Below, in pieces: positions 43,131 to 63,085 of a stretch of DNA of 64,000 nucleotides (positions are counted from its first letter, which is position 1; the number at the start of each line of letters is the position of its first letter). The notes beneath the pieces are model-generated. The model was given only the letters and a program-made list of their open reading frames with translations. It was not told the origin of the DNA and searched no databases. The DNA is from Candidatus Latescibacterota bacterium (GTDB lineage Bacteria > Latescibacterota > UBA2968 > GCA-2709665): contig CAXXJS010000036.1 of assembly GCA_963662665.2 (NCBI GenBank), positions 1 through 64,000 on the forward strand, written 5' to 3'. Position numbers and translations under genes: made by a program.

Positions 43131-43327
43131 TAACCTTGATTCATAATTCTTCGGGGAAGTGAAACCGAATTTATGCAAGTAGATAAAGGCGATTAGACTT
43201 CGGATTACCAGGATACACCAGGTCACTGGACGTGAACTGAAAAAAAGTCCTTTTGGACGACCTTTTCGGCCCATTTCGGAAGGTTTAATCGCGGCGCAGA
43301 GTTGCTGGTTTTGTCGAATTGAGGTTA
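43131..43327. mobile_element. MITE-like element, copy 1 (193 bp plus TA duplication)
   Basis: TA-ACCTTGATTC ... GAATTGAGGT-TA terminal inverted repeats. Non-coding. Colinear with 58338-58524. Confidence 0.75.
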
Positions 43328-43440
43328 AACCTTGATTCGTGATTCTCCGGAGACGTTAAATTAAATATACCCGGGTGGAGAAAGCCGATTTGAGGTTGGA
43401 TTACCAGGATACTTCAGGTCTTTGGACGTGAACGGAAAAA
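43328..43440. mobile_element. MITE-like element, copy 2 (diverged, 3'-truncated, tandem)
   Basis: AACCTTGATTC...GGATTACCAGGATAC..CAGGTC..TGGACGTGAAC, homologous to copy 1. Confidence 0.7.
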
Positions 43441-44661
43441 ATGTCCATGGTGCTCAAAATCGCGTTTCGGAATCTCTTTCGCCAGCGGCGGCGGTCGGTA
43501 TTGACCCTGGCGGCGATGGCGGGGGGTTTTGCGCTGTGCTCGCTGTCCATCGGGATTTCGGACGGCACCTACCTGGGGCTGATCGAGGCGTTCACCAGAG
43601 ACCGGACAGGCCACGTTCAGATTCATGGGGAAGGCTATCTCGACAGACCCACGCTTTACAATACCATTGACGATCCGGACCGGGTGGGGGCGACCGTCGA
43701 GTCGTTGGACGTTGTCGAGGCATGGACGCCCAGGGTGTATTCTCCCGTTCTGGCCGCGGCGGGAAACAAGACCTCGGGCGCGCGGATTGTGGGCGTGTTG
43801 CCCGGCCGTGAGGCACGGACAACCCGTCTCAGATTGAAAGTGCGCGAAGGCCGGTTTCTGACCGACCGTTCCGGGCCGGAGTTGATGCTGGGCCATGGAC
43901 TGGCACAGTCGTTAGATGCAAACACTGGCGATGAGGTGATATTGATCGGGCAGGCAGCGGACGGATCCATCGCCAACGACGTCTACCGCGTTGTGGGTAT
44001 CGTGGGCGACGCCAGGGATCCGTACCAGCGCGTGGCCTGTTACATGCACCTCGAAGAGGCGCAGCATTTCCTCGAACTGGGTCGTCGCGTTCACGAAGTG
44101 GCGGCCGTGCTTACGGACCCTTCGGTGTCGGTGCGTACCGCCAGTCAGCTGGAGGGCCTCCTGACCGGCGGCTCGTTCGAGGTCTCGCCGTGGCAGGTGG
44201 TAGAAAGCGCGTTTTACCGGGCGATGCAGGCCGACCTCCAGGGGATGTGGATCTCGCTGGGTATCATCAACCTGATCGTGGCCATCGGCGTGCTGAATAC
44301 CGTACTGATGGCCATAATGGAGCGCACACGTGAATTTGGCGTGCTGCGGGCTTTGGGTACGCGGCCGGCAACCGTGTTTCTCCTGATCCTGGGCGAGACC
44401 GCCTGTCTGTCGGTTTTCGGCGCGCTGATCGGCGGGGTTCTGGGCACGATCTGCAACGCGACCCTGGCGAAACACGGCATCGCCTACCCGACGCCGGTGG
44501 AATACGGCGGCTATGTTTTCGATCGGCTGATCAGTATGGTTTCGTTTCGGTCGGTCTGGATACCGGCGGTGCTGACCTTCGGTACCGCCGTTCTCGTGAG
44601 CCTGATCCCGGCGACGCGCGCGGCCAGAATCGCGCCTGCACGGGCGATGCGGACGCATTGA
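43441..44661 (+). CDS. ABC transporter permease (LolC/E-FtsX family)
   Basis: AFRNLFR..RRS, NTVLMAIMERTREFGVLRALG. Confidence 0.92.
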   Translation: MSMVLKIAFRNLFRQRRRSVLTLAAMAGGFALCSLSIGISDGTYLGLIEAFTRDRTGHVQIHGEGYLDRPTLYNTIDDPDRVGATVESLDVVEAWTPRVYSPVLAAAGNKTSGARIVGVLPGREARTTRLRLKVREGRFLTDRSGPELMLGHGLAQSLDANTGDEVILIGQAADGSIANDVYRVVGIVGDARDPYQRVACYMHLEEAQHFLELGRRVHEVAAVLTDPSVSVRTASQLEGLLTGGSFEVSPWQVVESAFYRAMQADLQGMWISLGIINLIVAIGVLNTVLMAIMERTREFGVLRALGTRPATVFLLILGETACLSVFGALIGGVLGTICNATLAKHGIAYPTPVEYGGYVFDRLISMVSFRSVWIPAVLTFGTAVLVSLIPATRAARIAPARAMRTH

Positions 44662-55800: not shown

Positions 55801-57363
55801 ATGCAGGCCTGTTTTCGACATTATGCCGCTCTCCGGAAGGAGATGGACGCCTGGTTGGCGCAGAGCAGGCGCATGGATCCGCCGGGCAGACACGGCGGCG
55901 GCGAGGACGAAGCCAACTACGCCCTGGCCTGGTTCCCGCACTTTCTTGCAACGGGCGATCCGGCGGTTGTGGAGCATTTCGAGTATCTCCGGGATCAGCT
56001 TGCGGGTTGGGTCCGGCGCGAATGTCTGCACGGCTACGAGCCGGAGGCGGAGGCGCATCATGGCACCGAGCCGTTCCTGCTCTTTCTCCCGCGCTATCTG
56101 GGTGTGTTTCCGGAGGACCGGGTCGGTGCGAGACTGCTTGCGGATGCGGCCGAACACATCGGGAACTGGGAAAAGGGGATTCCGGCGTGGTTCGACTGGG
56201 ACCGGAACCGGTTCTTCGGATACCACATCGGTACACGGACCGTGGGGCGGGATCCGGAGCACGCGGTGGAACTGGCGGAGCACTTCCGGTTCATTCACAT
56301 TGCCCTGGCGGCGTACCGCGTGCTGAAACAGGATCGGTACCTGGACTGGGCGTTGCGTTACGGAAGGCGCCGCGCGGAGATGATCGTGGCCGCGCCTGAC
56401 GGGGAATTACCCGTGATGTGGGGGCCGGACGGACGGCCTCTGAGCGAATGCGAGTATACGGAATCGCAGCGTCGGATGAGCGCCGCAAGCCACCATCTGC
56501 CGGACGATCCGGCAAGGGGCGTGGAGGTGCTGCTTGCCTCAGGTGCCGTCCACGCGCTGGGCGATCTGTTTCGGCTGTCCGGCGAGACGGTATTTCGCGA
56601 CGCGGGATTTCGGATTGTCGAGCCTCTCGTCGGCATGCTTCACGACCCCTATTGCGATCCCGGCGCCGCTGCCGTCTCCTTCTACCGTTGCGCCTTTGGC
56701 GACGATACCCTGGATGGCCGGATCCGGGAAATGGTCCGGCGGCTTCCAGACGTGGAACCCGGCGAACTCGTGCTTATTGTGCCCGAGGTTCCACGGATGT
56801 CCTTTCCCGGCGTGGGGAAGCGGGCGGATATGCTGCACTGGGGTGTGCAGACAAAAGGCGTGGACCACATCGCGCCGACGCGGGAGCCGTGTACGGCTAC
56901 GTTGACGCTTGCCTACCAGATGACCGGCGACGTGTCGTTTGCATCGCGTGCACTGAAGCAGGCGGCGCGGAAGCTGAAAGTGGCGAGGCGTGTATTGAGG
57001 GGTGGAAGGGAGCACGCGGACATGGGCGGGGCGGTTTGCTCCGTGGCGGCGGGCCACGGTCGAAACTGGGGTTCGGGAGCCGTGACCGGATGCTACGGAC
57101 CCTTGCTGCTCGGCGCCCGGGAGCAACTTGGCGCGATGGCCCCCGCGGTGGAAGTCCGCAGGTCTGGAGACGAGTACGGTCTGCCCGAACGGGTAGTTTC
57201 GCTGGTCGTCCCGCCCGGTCCGTCCACTGGAAACGTGCGGATCTACAACGGTGGCGACTCGGAGGAGACCGTCTCGTGGCGGCGGCCGGGAGCGGCGTGG
57301 CAGGAGGTTTCCCTCCCGCCGGGAGTCGAAACCAGGGCGGTACTGGAGGAGGATGTGCGATGA
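55801..57363 (+). CDS. hypothetical protein (probable alpha/alpha barrel)
   Basis: 520-aa ORF in operon context with HGGGEDE and AHHGTE motifs. No family recognised. Confidence 0.6.
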   Translation: MQACFRHYAALRKEMDAWLAQSRRMDPPGRHGGGEDEANYALAWFPHFLATGDPAVVEHFEYLRDQLAGWVRRECLHGYEPEAEAHHGTEPFLLFLPRYLGVFPEDRVGARLLADAAEHIGNWEKGIPAWFDWDRNRFFGYHIGTRTVGRDPEHAVELAEHFRFIHIALAAYRVLKQDRYLDWALRYGRRRAEMIVAAPDGELPVMWGPDGRPLSECEYTESQRRMSAASHHLPDDPARGVEVLLASGAVHALGDLFRLSGETVFRDAGFRIVEPLVGMLHDPYCDPGAAAVSFYRCAFGDDTLDGRIREMVRRLPDVEPGELVLIVPEVPRMSFPGVGKRADMLHWGVQTKGVDHIAPTREPCTATLTLAYQMTGDVSFASRALKQAARKLKVARRVLRGGREHADMGGAVCSVAAGHGRNWGSGAVTGCYGPLLLGAREQLGAMAPAVEVRRSGDEYGLPERVVSLVVPPGPSTGNVRIYNGGDSEETVSWRRPGAAWQEVSLPPGVETRAVLEEDVR

Positions 57364-58340
57364 AATACCGAAAGCTGGGACAGACCGGGCTGGCGGTCTC
57401 GGAAATCGGCCTCGGCGCGTTTCCGATTTCCGGGATGCAGAGACAGGCGGACGGTACGCGGTTCGGATGGACCGGAACCGGGGATTCCGAGTCAATTGCG
57501 CTGATTCATCGCTGCGAGGAACTCGGGATCAATCTGATCGATTCCGCTGAAAGCTATGGCGACGGGCACAGCGAGGTTCTCACGGGCAAAGCGCTGCGAG
57601 GACGGAGAGACAGATGGATTGTGGCCACGAAGGTCCAGCCGAACGCGGGTATCGACTCTGAATCACGGGACGTGTCCGCGGTTCGGCGTCGAATTACAGA
57701 GGCGTGTGAGCTCAGCCTCAAACGGTTGGCGATGGACCACATAGATGTCTACCAGTTGCACGCCGTGCCTTACGAGTGGGCGATGCCAGCGGTAATGGAC
57801 ACGCTGGCGAAGCTCAGACAGGCCGGCAAGGTGCGGTGGTACGGGATTTCGACCAATGACAGGCAAGCCGTGGAGAAGCTCCGTACGTTCGGATCTGTCC
57901 ATATGCTGCAGGTGGGCTATAATCTGCTCGAACGCACCGCGGATGGGTTTCTGCACTGGGCCAAGGCCGAGAATATCGGTACGTTGATTCGCGTGCCGCT
58001 GGCAAAGGGTCAGCTGACGGGCAAGTATTTCGGAGCGGAAGCACGGACGATTCCGGAAAACGACGTGCGGTACGAACGGTTCAACAAACCCGAGACGGTC
58101 GATGGGCTGAAGCGTCTGCCGCAGTTGTTGTTCCTGCAGAACCGGACGCGAACCATGGCGCAGGCGGCGCTGCGTTTCGTGCTGGACCATCCCGGTGTGT
58201 CCTGCGTGATTGCCGGCGCCAAAAACCGACGGCAGGTGGAACAGAACGCCCGGACCGTAGAAATGCCGCCGCTGACCGAGGTTGAGCTCGAACGCGCCAT
58301 CCCGATCGCGGATACCATCGGTACGCCGGGCTGGATCTAA
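57360..58340 (+). CDS. aldo/keto reductase
   Basis: MKYRKLGQTG, DSAESYG, IVATK, YQLH, YNLL, PLAKG.LTGK. The start overlaps the upstream stop (ATGA). Confidence 0.92.
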   Translation: MKYRKLGQTGLAVSEIGLGAFPISGMQRQADGTRFGWTGTGDSESIALIHRCEELGINLIDSAESYGDGHSEVLTGKALRGRRDRWIVATKVQPNAGIDSESRDVSAVRRRITEACELSLKRLAMDHIDVYQLHAVPYEWAMPAVMDTLAKLRQAGKVRWYGISTNDRQAVEKLRTFGSVHMLQVGYNLLERTADGFLHWAKAENIGTLIRVPLAKGQLTGKYFGAEARTIPENDVRYERFNKPETVDGLKRLPQLLFLQNRTRTMAQAALRFVLDHPGVSCVIAGAKNRRQVEQNARTVEMPPLTEVELERAIPIADTIGTPGWI

Positions 58341-58476
58341 CCTTGATTCTTAACTCTTCGGGGAAGTTAAACCGAATATATGCAAGTGGATAAAGGCGTC
58401 TTAACGGCTGATTACCAGGATACACCAGGTCACTGGACGTGAACTGAAAAAACGTCCCTTTGAACGACCTTAGTAC

Positions 58477-58524
58477 CGCGTTACTGAAGTTTTCGTCGTG
58501 GTGTCGCCTTGCAGTTTTTTTCGA
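58477..58524. repeat. 48-bp direct repeat, left copy
   Basis: 42/48 identical to 61742-61789 by manual alignment. Confidence 0.85.
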
Positions 58525-58929
58525 CCTCCACCATTCTCTACTAACTCCCCACCGCCCGTGGGCTCCCCAACCTGTCCCGCTACGCTCGCAGTTCGTATCA
58601 ACGATAAAACTCCTCGGCGGCCTCCGCCACTGACTTTAGTTCAGCAAGGGCTTGGAATGCTTCTCGAGGAAATGCCGTGCCCCGGGGATGGCGGAAAACC
58701 CCTGAGGGTGTTTTTCCAAGTGGGCCAGCTAAATCTATGTTGTGGATCTCCGCGATTATAAGACTGATCTACCGTTGAGCCCTGAAGCAGAAGGAACGTC
58801 GTTGTTCTATAGATATAGTAAACCAGAACGAATGGCTTCACGTCAAGCGCGATGAGTTTTGTTTTGCTTAACGGGACGGTAGATTACTGCCGTCTCCTGA
58901 TTTATATAAGCGAATCACGAGGGAATGAA

Positions 58930-61734
58930 ATGCGCTGGTTCTTATTGATTTTCGCAATACTATACCGTTACCCGGACCTCACTTGGGCAAATGAGATACA
59001 ACCCTGCTCGGTGATTGCGTTTGATGATTATCCAGAAGTTGCCGCAAAACAGACCCTCAATCTGGATGTAGGTCCACCGCGCAAGGTTCGTTTGATCTAT
59101 TTTCATTATAGTGATCGGCCTGTGCGCAGCCACGTAATTATTGGAATGCGCGAAACGATTCTAACCGCCCAAGGTCGTTTTGGTCAGCACATGCAAGCTC
59201 GACGTTTGGGGTATAAAACCTTTGATATTGAACTTACAAATCAGAATGTACCACGTGTGCATATAGTAGAGAGTCAGGAATTGAGTTATCACTATAGAGA
59301 GGATACACTTACACCTGTACTCGACGAATTGGAAACAAGATACGATTTAACCAGGAACATTTATTTTATCGTAATTGACAACAGGGAGCGTTGGATTGCG
59401 CGTGGTGAAGGGAGACGGTCGCGGGGCATAGGTGGGCGACACGGTAAGGCTGGGGGGATTGCAGTGATGCCTACCGAGTATAGCGTAGATACTGCGATGC
59501 ACGAACTGGGACACGCGTTTTCTCTCCATCACGATTTCAGTGATCGTCGAAACTTAATGTCCTATGGGCGAGATCGTGACAGACTATCGGCTTGCTCTGC
59601 ACAGTTGTTATCTGTGCATCCACACTTCAACAGGGACATTCCCGTACATCAATTGAGTGAGGATAGAGGGCCTCTGCGTACCTTGACTTCGTCTTATGAA
59701 TATATACTCGATACCACCCCCGTTCCTATTCGCATAAGAGCGACAGATCCTGACGGTATTCACCAGGTGGTATTGTTTGTTGAAACTGGTAGTTTACACC
59801 CGGCGGCGGGATTTTTGGAAGTAAAGTCTTTTGAACTGTATCGAGGGCGTGAGGACATTGTCGTTTCGTTTGATTTTGATGGTAAGGTACCTTCTCATTT
59901 GGCACAAGGGCACAGTTATCCTACCCCAACACCCTTGCGCGGTCGTCAGAGGATCTTTCTTTATTTCTATGACCGACTAGGTAACAAGGGTGTGATGCAT
60001 TTTGAGTTGTTGTCCATTCCTTCCCGGCGCGAGGTTAAGTTTATCCACAGTAATTCACGCACTAGTGTGGGTGATCGAGTGGCTCCACTTATCGTTACTT
60101 CTGTCGCTTTTTCGTCTGACGGTAAATATGTTGCTTCGGGTTCTGGTAAGGGCGAGGTTAAATTGTGGGACCTGGACCGGAAACGGAATATCTGGACAAA
60201 AAAACATGGTAACTCTGTAGGCGCTTTAGCGTTTTCGCCGGACGGCAAGGTCTTGGCTTCCGGTGGTTCTGAAGGGACAGTCAAGTTCTGGAATATGCCA
60301 TCGGGCACGGACACTCGAACATTGCAAACCGCTACTGTCGAAAAATCCATTCGTGCGTTGGTTTTCGCTCCTGATGCTACTTTCCTTTATGCCGGTTTAA
60401 CGCGCGATGAGATTGTTTTCTGGAATATAGCGAAAGGGGCCGTGACCTACGGCCTTTCTCATATCGGAATGGGTAATGTCAATTCACTTGCCCTGTCTCC
60501 AGACGGCACAACGCTTATTTCTGGTTCGGCAGATGGGAAAATACGCGCTTGGCGCCATCGCTCTGGAGATGAGGACGTACAAGAACTGTGGGCGATTCAC
60601 GCACACTCGGAATCCGTACACTCTGTAGCATTTGCCCCCGATGGCAATTCAATTGCCTCTGCAGGATTAGAGACAGACCCGAGCGTTACGGTTCGAGAGA
60701 ATACCCGTACGAGCGATCGGACAGACAGCGTTGTTAAGTTTTGGGATTTTAATACTCGAAGGCAATTGGGCACTATTGAAACGGATACTCGACCAGGCTT
60801 TTCCTACCAGGTGCGGTCGATAGATTATTCGCCCAGTGGAAAACAACTGGCTGTAGGGTCCTGGGACAATACGGTGAAGTTGTATGGCACACAGGCCCCT
60901 TATCGTGAAATTGTTAATCTTGGCTATCACAATGAGCCGGGTAGGTGTGTTGGTTTCGTCTACGCTGTTGATTTTGCCGCAAGTGGTACTTTGTTGGCTT
61001 CCGGAGCATTAACCGGTAGTTGCGGAGGTTACTTGGGTTCGACTAAACCGTTTTTTGGTGAAGTTCATTTGTGGAATATGGAAGGCTTGGGGACGGGCAC
61101 TCGTTGGACGAGTTTCAATATGTATCTGGACGGAAATTTAGCGCCCGGCAATCACGCGGTCTCCGCGTTAGACGTGGCTCCTGGTACTACCGTTACGCTA
61201 CAGGTTCTAATTTATTATGTTCACGGGGCAAAGGGCATTAAGTTTAGCATAGAGTATGATGCTAAACAGCTTGAGTTTCAAGGTTTCAAGCCCAGCGAAC
61301 TCTTGCCAAATGCTCAGGTATTAATTTCACAACAAGAGAAGCCCAATGCCGTTGAAATTAATCTTGTCTCTTTCGATGGCGAAATTACAGATGGCCAGGG
61401 TGGTACACTGGGTGAGCTTTCTTTTACAAGCCGGGAGGGATTTACCGGAACAACAATCCGGTTAACCCAGGCCGAAGTTGGACAAGCCGACCAGACAGAA
61501 CGCAAGAACTTTACGAATCGGACAATGGTATTGAACCTTAAGAAAACAACGCCTTCGGCTGATTTCAACCAGGATGGCGATGTAAATTTCACCGATTTCT
61601 TAGTTTTTGTGGAGCACTTCGGACGCAAGAAAGGTCAACCAGGGTGGGATGCGAAATTTGATTTGGACAGCAATGGCGAGATCGGATTTGGGGATTTCTT
61701 GATTTTTGGGGCATCGTTCGGAGCGCGAGTTTAA
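58930..61734 (+). CDS. secreted multidomain protein: metzincin-like protease, WD40 propeller, cohesin-like domain, dockerin-like tail
   Basis: Signal peptide, HELGHAFSLHH with NLMSY Met-turn, repeats such as VAFSSDGKYVASGS..VKLWD, and tail DFNQDGDVNFTDF..DLDSNGEIGFGDF. Visibly AT-richer codon usage. Confidence 0.85.
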   Translation: MRWFLLIFAILYRYPDLTWANEIQPCSVIAFDDYPEVAAKQTLNLDVGPPRKVRLIYFHYSDRPVRSHVIIGMRETILTAQGRFGQHMQARRLGYKTFDIELTNQNVPRVHIVESQELSYHYREDTLTPVLDELETRYDLTRNIYFIVIDNRERWIARGEGRRSRGIGGRHGKAGGIAVMPTEYSVDTAMHELGHAFSLHHDFSDRRNLMSYGRDRDRLSACSAQLLSVHPHFNRDIPVHQLSEDRGPLRTLTSSYEYILDTTPVPIRIRATDPDGIHQVVLFVETGSLHPAAGFLEVKSFELYRGREDIVVSFDFDGKVPSHLAQGHSYPTPTPLRGRQRIFLYFYDRLGNKGVMHFELLSIPSRREVKFIHSNSRTSVGDRVAPLIVTSVAFSSDGKYVASGSGKGEVKLWDLDRKRNIWTKKHGNSVGALAFSPDGKVLASGGSEGTVKFWNMPSGTDTRTLQTATVEKSIRALVFAPDATFLYAGLTRDEIVFWNIAKGAVTYGLSHIGMGNVNSLALSPDGTTLISGSADGKIRAWRHRSGDEDVQELWAIHAHSESVHSVAFAPDGNSIASAGLETDPSVTVRENTRTSDRTDSVVKFWDFNTRRQLGTIETDTRPGFSYQVRSIDYSPSGKQLAVGSWDNTVKLYGTQAPYREIVNLGYHNEPGRCVGFVYAVDFAASGTLLASGALTGSCGGYLGSTKPFFGEVHLWNMEGLGTGTRWTSFNMYLDGNLAPGNHAVSALDVAPGTTVTLQVLIYYVHGAKGIKFSIEYDAKQLEFQGFKPSELLPNAQVLISQQEKPNAVEINLVSFDGEITDGQGGTLGELSFTSREGFTGTTIRLTQAEVGQADQTERKNFTNRTMVLNLKKTTPSADFNQDGDVNFTDFLVFVEHFGRKKGQPGWDAKFDLDSNGEIGFGDFLIFGASFGARV

Positions 61735-61741
61735 TTCACAA

Positions 61742-61789
61742 CGCGTTTCCGCAGTTTTCATCGTGGTGTCGCCTTGCTGTTTTCTTCGA
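61742..61789. repeat. 48-bp direct repeat, right copy, followed by the MITE right TIR
   Basis: Matches 58477-58524 and continues ATTGAGGT-TA as in copy 1 (43318-43327). Confidence 0.85.
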
Positions 61790-61822
61790 ATTGAGGTTAG
61801 ACGGCGACTCTGGAGATCGTAT

Positions 61823-63085
61823 ATGTCTTCGGCAATTCGGATTGGCGTGATCGGTTGCGGGCGAATCCTTAACGCGCATCTGCGCGGACTCCGAATCCTT
61901 CAGGAAAACGGCTTCGGGGATCTCTTCCGGGTGACGGCGCTGTGCGCAAGGAAACGTGAGGACGCCCTCCGTTTTCGAACGCGTGGCGAAGGCCCGGGTC
62001 CCAGACCGGCGCCGGTGGAGGCCCCGGGTGACCCGCTGAATGCGCCGCACGCGTACATCAGCGACCTGCATCCCGGTCAGGAAACGGCGGTTTACACGGA
62101 TTATCGTGAGATGCTGGAACGCGGACCGGTCGACGCGGTGTGCATCCTGACGGGACACGATACGCACCACACCATCGCCATCGATGCCATGCGGGCCGGC
62201 AGGCACGCGACGGTCGAAAAGCCGATGGCGATCTCGGTAAGGGCCGCGCTGCGGATGTGTGAAGTGGCTGCCGAGACGAACACCGTCTTGAGCGTTGCAG
62301 AGAATGTGAACTTCACTCCCGCGGTGCGTGCGAGCCGGTGGGCCGTCAGGCAGGGATTCATCGGTGACGTGCAGATGGTCTACCGCGGAGCGATCGGGTT
62401 CCGGTCTCACCGGCCGGATCTGGTTGCCGCGCGTACTCCGTGGAGGCAGTCAAAGCTGGGCGCCGGCGGCGGAGTATCCATCGATTTGGGCGTTCATCTC
62501 TTCAACGGCGTACGGACGATCTGCGGTCCGGTGCATTCGGTGCAGGCCCTGTGGCGGATTCTGGAGCCGGTCCGGGTGCTGATGTCAGACGACGACCGGG
62601 GGGTCGCGGATGAGGTCCGGAACCAGGTCGACGACGTGTTTTTTTCGAATTTCAGGTTTGCGAACGGGGCGATCGGACATCTGGCTGTAGCCCGAAGCAC
62701 CAGAGGCACGCAGATCGGCGTGCCGGGAGGTACCAACGTATTCGGCAGCGCGGGGACGTTGTCGGATGGGAAAATTTACACGGAGGAACGGGCTGAGGAA
62801 GACGTTCTGGAGCGCTTTCAGCGGGATGCCTCCGAAAGTGAACTGGCAGAAGCGATGCCCGCCGGGATCACCGATGCTTTCGCGCTGGAGAACCTGGACT
62901 GGCTGCGCGCCATCGGTGGCGGATCGCCCGCGCGCATGACGGGGGAGGAGGGGACGACGGACCTGGCATTGAGCTACGCGATCCTCGAGTCGGGGCTGCT
63001 GGGACGGGAGGTGTCCCTGGAGGAGATGCTGGGAGGCGACGTGGACGGATATCAAAGGCCGATCAACGCGCACTACGGGTTGTAG
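61823..63085 (+). CDS. Gfo/Idh/MocA oxidoreductase
   Basis: IGVIGCG, VEKPMA, DLGVH. GGAG RBS. Confidence 0.88.
   Translation: MSSAIRIGVIGCGRILNAHLRGLRILQENGFGDLFRVTALCARKREDALRFRTRGEGPGPRPAPVEAPGDPLNAPHAYISDLHPGQETAVYTDYREMLERGPVDAVCILTGHDTHHTIAIDAMRAGRHATVEKPMAISVRAALRMCEVAAETNTVLSVAENVNFTPAVRASRWAVRQGFIGDVQMVYRGAIGFRSHRPDLVAARTPWRQSKLGAGGGVSIDLGVHLFNGVRTICGPVHSVQALWRILEPVRVLMSDDDRGVADEVRNQVDDVFFSNFRFANGAIGHLAVARSTRGTQIGVPGGTNVFGSAGTLSDGKIYTEERAEEDVLERFQRDASESELAEAMPAGITDAFALENLDWLRAIGGGSPARMTGEEGTTDLALSYAILESGLLGREVSLEEMLGGDVDGYQRPINAHYGL

Follow-up and report, generated by a model that had tools for sequence, protein, structure and literature searches.

ERIC and RUP-type MITEs are small, multicopy, intergenic elements, often located at stop codons, that duplicate TA. 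Correia MITEs, as treated in PMC9330008, are likewise small, multicopy, intergenic, and often found at stop codons, features shared by the MITE described here; the relevant part of that source gives them a TA duplication, whereas our element has a 4-bp duplication and IS1380 ends. Among the closest described systems are the transposable modules (TMos) of the IS1380 elements ISPme1 and ISEcp1, in which, according to the sections of PMC9330008 and PMC3281130 on these elements, IS1380-type ends are combined with a distal right end that carries adjacent DNA. The first feature recurs in our material, and the second appears to do so in compound MITEs of two congeners, G013 and G007. Unlike the TMos of ISPme1 and ISEcp1 as presented there, the MITE lacks a transposase, the cargo unit has no target duplication and was seen at no second site, and the cargo lies inside an inner right end.

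Two other systems place passenger genes between transposase-free miniature elements, as seen here: the TIME-COMPs of Pseudomonas (PMC4133298), whose transposition is reported there as demonstrated, and the MITE-flanked class 1 integrons of Acinetobacter (PMC9771954). In the passages of those papers that concern them, both consist of whole copies found in several contexts, whereas our locus has partial pieces of two subfamilies at one orthologous site. MITEs and ISs also serve as portable homology for transposase-independent recombination within repeated mobile DNA (PMC9330008, PMC4133298); the cases set out in the relevant sections are deletions and rearrangements within a genome, whereas here a gene appears to have been imported from another species, between flanks of about 82 to 84% identity. 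In the passages of the open literature that were examined, no IS1380-derived MITE with a cargo is described.

Layout of the AKR-Gfo interval

The window, by which we mean the whole 64,000-nucleotide stretch that was analyzed, contains an aldo/keto reductase (AKR) gene (57360..58340, plus strand; PF00248, E 8e-52) and a Gfo/Idh/MocA oxidoreductase (Gfo) gene (61823..63085, plus strand; PF01408, PF22725, and PF02894) on either side of the unit. The AKR gene is intact and unharmed: its TAA stop codon (58338-58340) falls within CTAA (58337-58340), the 4-base flank left of the MITE, and its last codons before the stop are identical in all 14 congeners. The left MITE piece (58341..58524, plus strand; nhmmer model positions 1-184) has an intact left end and a right end without its last 7 bases. 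It is followed on the plus strand by a 405-bp noncoding cargo leader (58525..58929), 87% identical to G013; the cargo gene (58930..61734; 934 aa; WD40, E 4e-40), with 95% DNA identity to G013; the right MITE piece (61738..61796; model positions 133-191), which has a G013-type tail and an intact right end; and the 4-base flank TTAG with the spacer up to the Gfo start (61797..61822).

From CC at 58341 to GG at 61796, the unit measures 3,456 bp and has one left end and one right end, supplied by two partial MITE copies (positions 1-184 and 133-191) rather than by two complete ones. Its flanks, CTAA and TTAG, mismatch at two of four bases, so that no target duplication surrounds it. The cargo is its only long ORF; the unit has no transposase gene of its own, and neither its copy in this genome (G000) nor that in G013 contains an integrase gene. 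Apart from one chance match, Rfam yielded no structured RNA in 57800-62300.

An earlier note on this DNA had bounded the unit at 58338..61799 with TA, limits that we move to 58341-61796 in view of the 4-bp duplications of solo copies. Its alignments hold: 58338-58524 aligns to a solo copy at 43131-43317 with 80.7% identity over 187 bp; the last 48 bp of the left piece (58477..58524, plus strand) recur, 42 of 48 identical, at 61742-61789 inside the right piece; the latter supplies the right end, 61738-61796 being the last 59 model positions; and 22 bp is the correct distance to the Gfo ATG. The tail motif occurs only twice in the whole genome, both times at this locus.

A MITE family with IS1380-type ends

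The 191-bp MITE is short, multicopy, and without a transposase; nhmmer found 80 matches in the genome, with 52 full copies of 185 to 195 bp at a mean identity of 86.6%. An exact 4-bp target duplication, mostly YTAA, flanks 33 of the 54 matches in which both ends were located (22 of 76, with one end missing, were excluded), compared to 10.7 expected from cross-pairing; two or more flank mismatches occur in 7 of the 54 solo copies. The solo full-length copy at 43134..43324 (plus strand) has an exact 4-bp duplication, TTAA, and is followed by a truncated copy at 43330-43450 (positions 1-121). Its fold has a z of −2.3 as RNA and −0.4 as DNA.

Target duplications of 4 and 5 bp are tabulated for IS1380 members in PMC4133298 and PMC3281130. 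An intact 1,553-bp IS1380 element with a 4-bp duplication is present in the same genome (C57:49338-50890); its transposase scores 215 bits against NF033539 (cut-off, 180), and its ends are identical to those of the unit at 9/10 and 8/10 bases. The first 9 bases of the MITE are also those with which IS1380 copies in G005 and G001 start, while its internal sequence shows no visible derivation from the IS1380 copies compared (no nhmmer match at their ends). Judged by its ends and duplications, the 191-bp element is a nonautonomous MITE with IS1380-type ends and a 4-bp YTAR-type duplication, distributed genus-wide. Fifteen near-identical IS1380 copies of the genome were rejected as its partner because their left ends differ. 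An integron attC reading, which the outer flanks fit by eye (RYYYAAC/GTTRRRY), was dropped given the 4-bp duplication and the IS1380 ends. A promoter carried by the MITE that might serve the cargo was looked for, but the plus strand holds no consensus site.

We looked for further cargo-bearing split copies among the 80 matches, the orphan ends, and relaxed end pairs up to 12 kb, and found none. The longer end pairs with matching flanks were intron-bearing copies, IS1380 itself, a 47-bp mini element, and two pairs in which the end of a solo copy is joined to a distant end or end-like match.

Origin of the unit

The cargo is absent from the AKR-Gfo site in 13 of 14 congeners and present in one, the distant G013, whose near-complete assembly has the same order of parts as G000. 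Among 22 family genomes, the unit occurs beyond G000 only in G013, at the same site, and metagenome and genome scans gave no second close copy apart from that one. The allele of G013 too has MITE pieces on both sides of the cargo. G000 and G013 belong to different clades, and the sister of G000, G006, has neither MITE nor cargo here. Between G000 and G013, dS is 0.154 and 0.117 in two blocks of the cargo gene, as against 0.757 for AKR and 0.654 for Gfo; identity, 74 to 87% in flanking bins, reaches 91 to 97% in bins of the cargo gene, and the flanking genes show no increase beside the junctions.

The head of the left MITE is 92% identical to the genome consensus and its tail 71%, lower than in any of the 52 full copies (lowest, 74%); the same tail is 91% identical to the right piece of G013. 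Diagnostic sites up to position 119 are 22 native, 3 G013-type, and 1 other (n = 26), and those from 122 to 176 are 3 native and 13 G013-type (n = 16; Fisher P = 1e-5 for a break chosen post hoc), which places the subfamily switch at about 58449-58462. By these sites, the left MITE is a chimera of a native head and a tail of the G013/G007 subfamily, which is otherwise absent from the genome. The tail resembles the right piece of G013 more than the left piece of that genome (83%), which excludes G013 itself as the donor. Among the 80 genome matches, this is the single chimeric MITE that encloses a gene. The CTAA/TTAG mismatch is expected if the two ends stem from different insertions.

Compound MITEs of G013 and G007 consist of a MITE with its inner right end, a palindromic module of ~140 bp, and a second right end. 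Five complete copies are present in G013 and one in G007; the outer 4-mers are identical in three of the six and differ at one base in the other three. One compound copy has a long duplicated tail, and another (L148) has the layout of the AKR-Gfo allele minus the cargo. This structure suggests that a compound MITE moves as one piece via its outer right end; such reading through the inner right end would amount to ISEcp1-style gene-capture behavior in a nonautonomous element. Compound MITEs of the G013 type already carry the tail repeat without any cargo, which speaks against the composite proposed in the earlier note. In G013, the cargo splits the inner right end without a duplication: the first part stays on the left, and on the right a 6/7 match to the last 7 bases of the inner end and a 4-base spacer precede the module. 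G000 lacks the trailer and the module, 413 bp in all, and the copy in G013 is broken by an IS630.

With modest confidence, we favor the view that one allele recently replaced another between species through a crossover within the MITE, which would make the unit a recombination product and not a transposon that jumped. The 191-bp MITE, with its IS1380-type ends and 4-bp YTAR-type duplication, is found throughout the genus, and its compound form is present in the G013/G007 lineage. In an AKR-Gfo spacer of that lineage, the cargo gene with its leader and trailer would have entered the inner right end of a compound MITE, at the position seen in G013; the tail repeat would then merely resemble a composite transposon. 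G013-like donor DNA may subsequently have reached an ancestor of G000 with a native MITE in the AKR stop codon, the left crossover falling within the MITE at about positions 109-122 and the right one at, or close to, the short conserved spacer that precedes Gfo, so that the old spacer was replaced. Loss of the 413-bp trailer and module in G000, and later the IS630 break in G013, would complete the series; these differences are visible, their order presumed. So understood, the locus would be a clean natural footprint of a MITE-internal crossover coinciding with gene transfer between species whose adjacent genes share only about 83% identity.

Some observations count against this reading. In G003, G010, G013, and G014, a MITE right end at the same position is followed by a spacer like 61797..61822, and the spacer of G000 is equally close to those of G003, G014, and G013. 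Right-end remains also occur here in G010 and G014, and more weakly in G003, all members of G000's own clade; the right side may thus be native. Neither the genomes examined nor four runs showed a pre-transfer allele, with a native MITE in the stop codon but without the cargo; among the runs, no cargo-free joint is listed, and X7, X8, and X9 are too fragmented to show alleles.

A different history, which we consider possible rather than probable, is that the cargo allele crossed lineages (in either direction or from a third lineage) by ordinary recombination via short homologies at the ends of the gene, and that a native MITE later entered the AKR stop codon of this genome, where it underwent recombination or gene conversion with the older piece beside it. 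The MITE would then have been a passenger and not a dock. About 75 native MITE copies are available as conversion donors. Spacer types at the locus are distributed irregularly across the tree. The Gfo gene is mosaic, with a tree that differs from that of AKR, so that ordinary recombination is active here without MITEs. Moreover, in three genomes of another family the same AKR-Gfo interval holds cargo-family genes and no MITE match. Nevertheless, this history requires one extra event, the donor-type tract begins within the MITE, and identity to G013 fails to rise in AKR and Gfo near the junctions.

Another alternative, likewise possible rather than probable, concerns only the entry of the cargo into the inner right end: the cargo might be what is left of an integrative element of the tRNA/tmRNA type after its recombination into the T-loop-like TTCGA motif found there. 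Consistent with this, the cargo splits that end without a duplication, the leader starts with the 9 bases that end the tmRNA of the genome (9/9; 11/12 in G013; left edge only), and in one congener a further, partial tmRNA lies 50 kb away from the first. However, the match is short, was found after the fact, and requires small deletions, and the unit has no integrase. Leader-like DNA follows none of the 15 tmRNA loci in the genus, nor does the leader have any real match beyond G013 in 168 genomes of the phylum, 176 of a second phylum, and 3 single genomes, or in plasmid, phage, and viral contig searches; two short matches were inside unrelated genes.

We think it improbable that the whole 3,456-bp unit was moved in trans by an IS1380 transposase, as happens with transposable modules and mobile insertion cassettes; mobilization in trans, as a composite of two MITE copies, was one of the two proposals of the earlier note. 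Both outer ends are intact and match the intact IS1380 of the genome, compound MITEs of G013 and G007 appear to use a distal right end, IS1380 members are known to carry adjacent DNA in this manner (PMC9330008, in the part on that family), and mismatched flanks like those of the unit are found in the 7 solo copies mentioned above. Against such a move, no duplication surrounds the unit, which occupies one site only in the 22 family genomes; with about 9,000 YTAR sites to choose from, an element would be unlikely to enter one and the same site in two distant species; the right end is already in place in cargo-free relatives; and the left element is chimeric.

The assignment to IS630/Tc1-mariner, with two MITE copies forming a TA-flanked composite in a TAG stop codon, is refuted by the duplication length and the IS1380 ends: TA does flank the unit on either side, being part of YTAA and TTAG, and IS630 genes do occur in the genome, but 8 of the 33 exact 4-bp duplications lack TA at the proposed positions, none of nine tblastn matches to one IS630 query has MITE ends on both sides within 900 bp, and neither the genome nor any of the 228 loci compared contains the 14-base empty site that had been predicted, the real cargo-free alleles being different. 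One of the nine IS630 matches adjoins a separate MITE copy.

Misassembly at the 48-bp repeat can be dismissed with near certainty, although no Logan contig bridges the central part of the left MITE head and none covers the locus from end to end. One contig of run X4 matches 58428-63000 with 0 differences (4,573 bp, including the two copies of the repeat, the cargo, and Gfo), a second contig matches 57200-58430, also with 0 differences, and no listed joint links the 48-bp copies to each other. All sampled words are contained in five runs of four samples from two studies (one possibly the assembly source), and G013 has the same order. No RNA run is among the listed runs that hold these words.

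The cargo gene and its family

The 934-aa cargo product has a WD40 propeller and a cohesin domain (E 1.5e-7, above the cut-off), as well as matches just under the cut-off to Reprolysin_5 (E 2e-5) and Dockerin_1 (E 2e-4). The peptidase domain is M12/reprolysin-like with HExxH, and the tail is a dockerin-like EF-hand. By eye, the N terminus is a probable signal peptide; the domains point to a probable role as a secreted metallopeptidase that can dock. In sponge Latescibacterota, PMC12993501 counts WD40 proteins among the eukaryote-like ones.

The description of the cargo as foreign is borne out by its composition, 47.8% GC with a GC3 of 0.445, as against 60.5 to 65.5% and 0.74 to 0.75 in three flanking genes, but not by its family, which is represented by 11 matches in this genome and occurs in 64 of the 132 class genomes. 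The cargo is a member of a large native family with turnover elsewhere without MITEs. For close relatives of the cargo at other sites, a metagenome scan gave weak matches only, at 25 to 29% identity or 71% over 21 residues.

The other proposal of the earlier note, that MITEs act as recombination docks, fits the AKR-Gfo locus, where the left MITE is chimeric and the cargo far more alike between the two species than its flanks, but this is the only case among the 80 matches. It seems rather unlikely that the IS1380-derived MITE family is a genus-wide, cross-species dock that offers 80 to 90% homology patches in diverged operons, takes in genes at the inner right end, keeps modules movable by the resident IS1380 transposase, and so spreads secreted cohesin-dockerin proteases between co-occurring species. 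Were it general, short repeats would help to explain the trade of eukaryote-like surface proteins among these bacteria; with one event so far, and a gene family that also moves without MITEs, the wider claim is unproven. Among the matches listed (all 12 N-terminal and at least 12 C-terminal ones), paralogs have been gained and lost at other sites without a MITE. As a point against the favored reading, one low-GC paralog that lies more than 3 kb from any MITE likewise has a patchy distribution, being shared with G013 and G007 but lacking in G006.

Chimeric left MITE piece and cargo shared with a distant congener

The unit (58341-61796, on contig C36) lies in the spacer between genes for an aldo/keto reductase (AKR; 57360..58340, +) and a Gfo/Idh/MocA oxidoreductase (Gfo; 61823..63085, +). 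A model built on 52 full MITE copies of this genome, G000 (mean identity 86.6%, range 70-98%), places its left piece (58341-58524) at positions 1-184 of 191 and its right piece (61738-61796) at positions 133-191. The sole gene between them, the cargo gene (58930-61734), follows the left piece after a 405-bp leader for which no source was found; its GC3 is 0.445, versus 0.74-0.75 for three flanking genes. Upstream of AKR, a 520-aa gene (55801-57363) without a Pfam match keeps its position in congeners.

Judged by diagnostic sites (positions separating the G000 consensus from six copies of the congeners G013 and G007), the left piece is a chimera of a native head and a G013-type tail: through position 119, 22 of 26 sites are native, whereas 13 of 16 between positions 122 and 176 are G013-type; the switch falls at about 58449-58462, where the two types share their sequence. 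The head is 92% identical to the G000 consensus; the tail is 71% identical to it, below every one of the 52 copies, but 91% and 83% identical to the right and left pieces of G013. The tail motif occurs only twice in G000, both times at this locus.

G013 belongs to a clade other than that of G000 and, among 22 family genomes, is the sole other holder of the cargo DNA; the record with its copy (L138) is labelled Candidatus Latescibacterota. The cargo of the two genomes is 94-95% identical (dS 0.154 and 0.117), versus 83-84% for AKR and Gfo (dS 0.757 and 0.654), whose identity to G013 does not increase near the junctions. The G013 gene is interrupted by an IS630 (DDE_3), and 413 bp downstream of it are missing in G000.

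We consider it somewhat probable that a native MITE would have occupied the AKR stop codon in the G000 lineage and that a G013-like allele, if this was the direction of transfer, recombined in and displaced the old AKR-Gfo spacer, with the left crossover inside that MITE and the right one presumably at or near the short spacer before Gfo. The chimeric left piece and the low cargo dS relative to the flanking genes favor, at this locus, the earlier note's suggestion that MITEs act as recombination docks. The main rival, possible but rather doubtful, is that the same transfer took place and the chimera formed later within the genome. The unit behaves like a portable region of homology, here built from an IS1380-type MITE; it was also tried as a composite transposon and as an IS630 element, and fits neither.

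The AKR-Gfo site and compound MITEs in congeners

AKR and Gfo are adjacent in all 14 congeners. Seven have a spacer of 16-19 bp. In three others, among them G006, which the AKR and concatenated trees make the sister of G000, the spacer is 59-117 bp and lacks a MITE. A further three, without cargo, have 201-380 bp that retain traces of a MITE right end, distinct in G010 and G014 and weaker in G003. G013 alone has cargo there. Empty sites thus exist, but the unit, flanked by CTAA (left) and TTAG (right), was probably not placed into one of them as a single insertion. The empty site predicted earlier was absent from G000 and from 228 loci searched; the real ones differ. Gfo itself (61823-63085) is mosaic: 89-98% identical to G006 across its first 750 bases, then 76-83%, G011 being closer over the latter part.

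In G013 and G007 the G013-type tail is part of a compound MITE, in which the inner right end is followed by a 4-base spacer, then by a palindromic module of ~140 bp, and finally by a second right end (five complete copies in G013, one retrieved from G007). Of the six, three have identical outer 4-mers and three show a single mismatch, whereas the inner 4-mer hardly varies, as would be expected of a transposase that acts on the distal end; such use is described for IS1380 transposable modules (PMC9330008; PMC3281130). One copy, L148, has a long duplicated tail and matches the AKR-Gfo allele of G013 in all but the cargo; the 48-bp tail repeat is older than the cargo's arrival. In the G013 allele the cargo divides the inner right end without duplication. 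Its left edge resembles a tmRNA 3' end; no integrase was found for it, nor a matching tmRNA neighborhood among 15 genomes. Two complete tmRNA genes lie 2.2 kb from each other in G007 (L214), and G010 has a second, partial one 50 kb downstream of the first (L213, L215). The palindromic module links MITE parts in several chimeric forms in G013 and G007 (L146-L154), accompanies a right end once in G000 (C61:190041-190192), and forms an array in G013 (C1, about 3051600-3055300).

Transposition of the whole unit is improbable. MITE-bounded cargo is known, as in TIME-COMP (PMC4133298) and MITE-flanked integrons (PMC9771954); against the composite of two MITE copies proposed in the earlier note stand the mismatched flanks, the chimeric left piece, and a repeat that predates the cargo. 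The parts of the literature searched, mostly outside subscription journals, describe neither compound forms of an IS1380-derived MITE nor a cross-species crossover inside such an element.

An IS1380-type MITE family and the assembly of the locus

The reported colinearity of 58338-58524 with the solo copy at 43131-43317 held (80.7% identity across 187 bp, aligned within the window). A truncated second copy (43330-43450) adjoins the solo copy and ends at the apparent start codon of the next gene. The solo copy as query gave 76 matches in G000, and the 52-copy model 80. With ends taken as CC and GG, an exact 4-bp duplication flanks 33 of the 54 matches with both ends located (10.7 expected from cross-pairing), and one within a single mismatch flanks 47 (33.9 expected). 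CTAA and TTAA make up most of the targets; the TA duplication first reported, of IS630/Tc1-mariner type, was seen because TA is the middle of the duplicated 4-mer, and the TA required by those boundaries is missing in 8 of the 33 exact cases. None of nine IS630-like matches in G000 is bounded by these ends. The IS630 composite of the earlier note is very improbable.

PF13701 has 17 matches in G000, 15 of them one element with left ends unlike the MITE's. An IS1380 element (C57:49338-50890; 1553 bp) has a 4-bp duplication, a 459-aa open frame that scores above the NCBIfam cut-off for IS1380, and ends identical to those of the unit at 9/10 and 8/10 positions; IS1380 relatives in G005 and G001 share the MITE's first 9 bases. 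On sequence grounds the MITE is of IS1380 type, with IS630 ruled out, and the shared ends suggest that the C57 transposase may move it. G009 carries a nearly identical version of that element together with its flanking DNA (L097; protein 99%), and G002 a close one (L098; 92%), which is another indication of recent DNA exchange within the genus.

Eight G000 contigs (C8, C10, C11, C23, C28, C37, C40, and C50; e.g., L216) carry ORF-less, 756-nt group II introns with 0-2 differences, placed 13 bases inside the MITE left end; the host copies, only 87-97% alike, are dispersed over the tree, a pattern that speaks for retrohoming. Three 1975-nt copies (C61, C24, C16) encode a reverse transcriptase. 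The two MITE ends of a 47-bp mini element (C23:45042-45088), which has an exact CTAA duplication, enclose a 21-nt hairpin that matches the group II intron 5' end.

Misassembly at the 48-bp repeat, whose copies are indeed identical at 42 of 48 positions, is hardly conceivable: in sequencing run X4, assembled as Logan contigs, no contig covers the whole stretch, but one equals 58428-63000 with zero differences, a second matches 57200-58430, and no joint linking the repeat copies is among those listed. All sampled words of the locus are present in five runs (four samples, two studies), one of which may be the source.

The cargo protein and its family

The cargo protein has a firm WD40 match, a cohesin match above cut-off, and M12-like peptidase and dockerin matches each slightly below their own; its N-terminus, judged by eye, and its domains suggest secretion. 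The family, with matches in 64 of 132 genomes of the class and 11 in G000, is native to the class, so that "foreign", as the gene had been called, must be qualified; this allele is probably a recent transfer given its low dS against G013. Other homologues are ≤46% identical over the N-terminal part, with a few short matches higher.

Of seven genomes retrieved from a second family, three also have cargo-family genes in the AKR-Gfo interval, without a MITE match, and a low-GC paralog on C11, common to G000, G013, and G007 at 87-90% and absent from G006, has no MITE within 3 kb. The family therefore turns over without MITEs, which limits what this locus says about any general route. In one second-family genome a cargo-type gene sits between two racemase genes 92% identical. 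Across that family's intervals (L190, G027; L191, G031; L192, G029; L193, G028; L194, G040), cargo-family, AAA-ATPase, and duplicate mandelate-racemase genes come and go; G028 and G040 lack the cargo gene of G027 and retain the sequence 3' of it.
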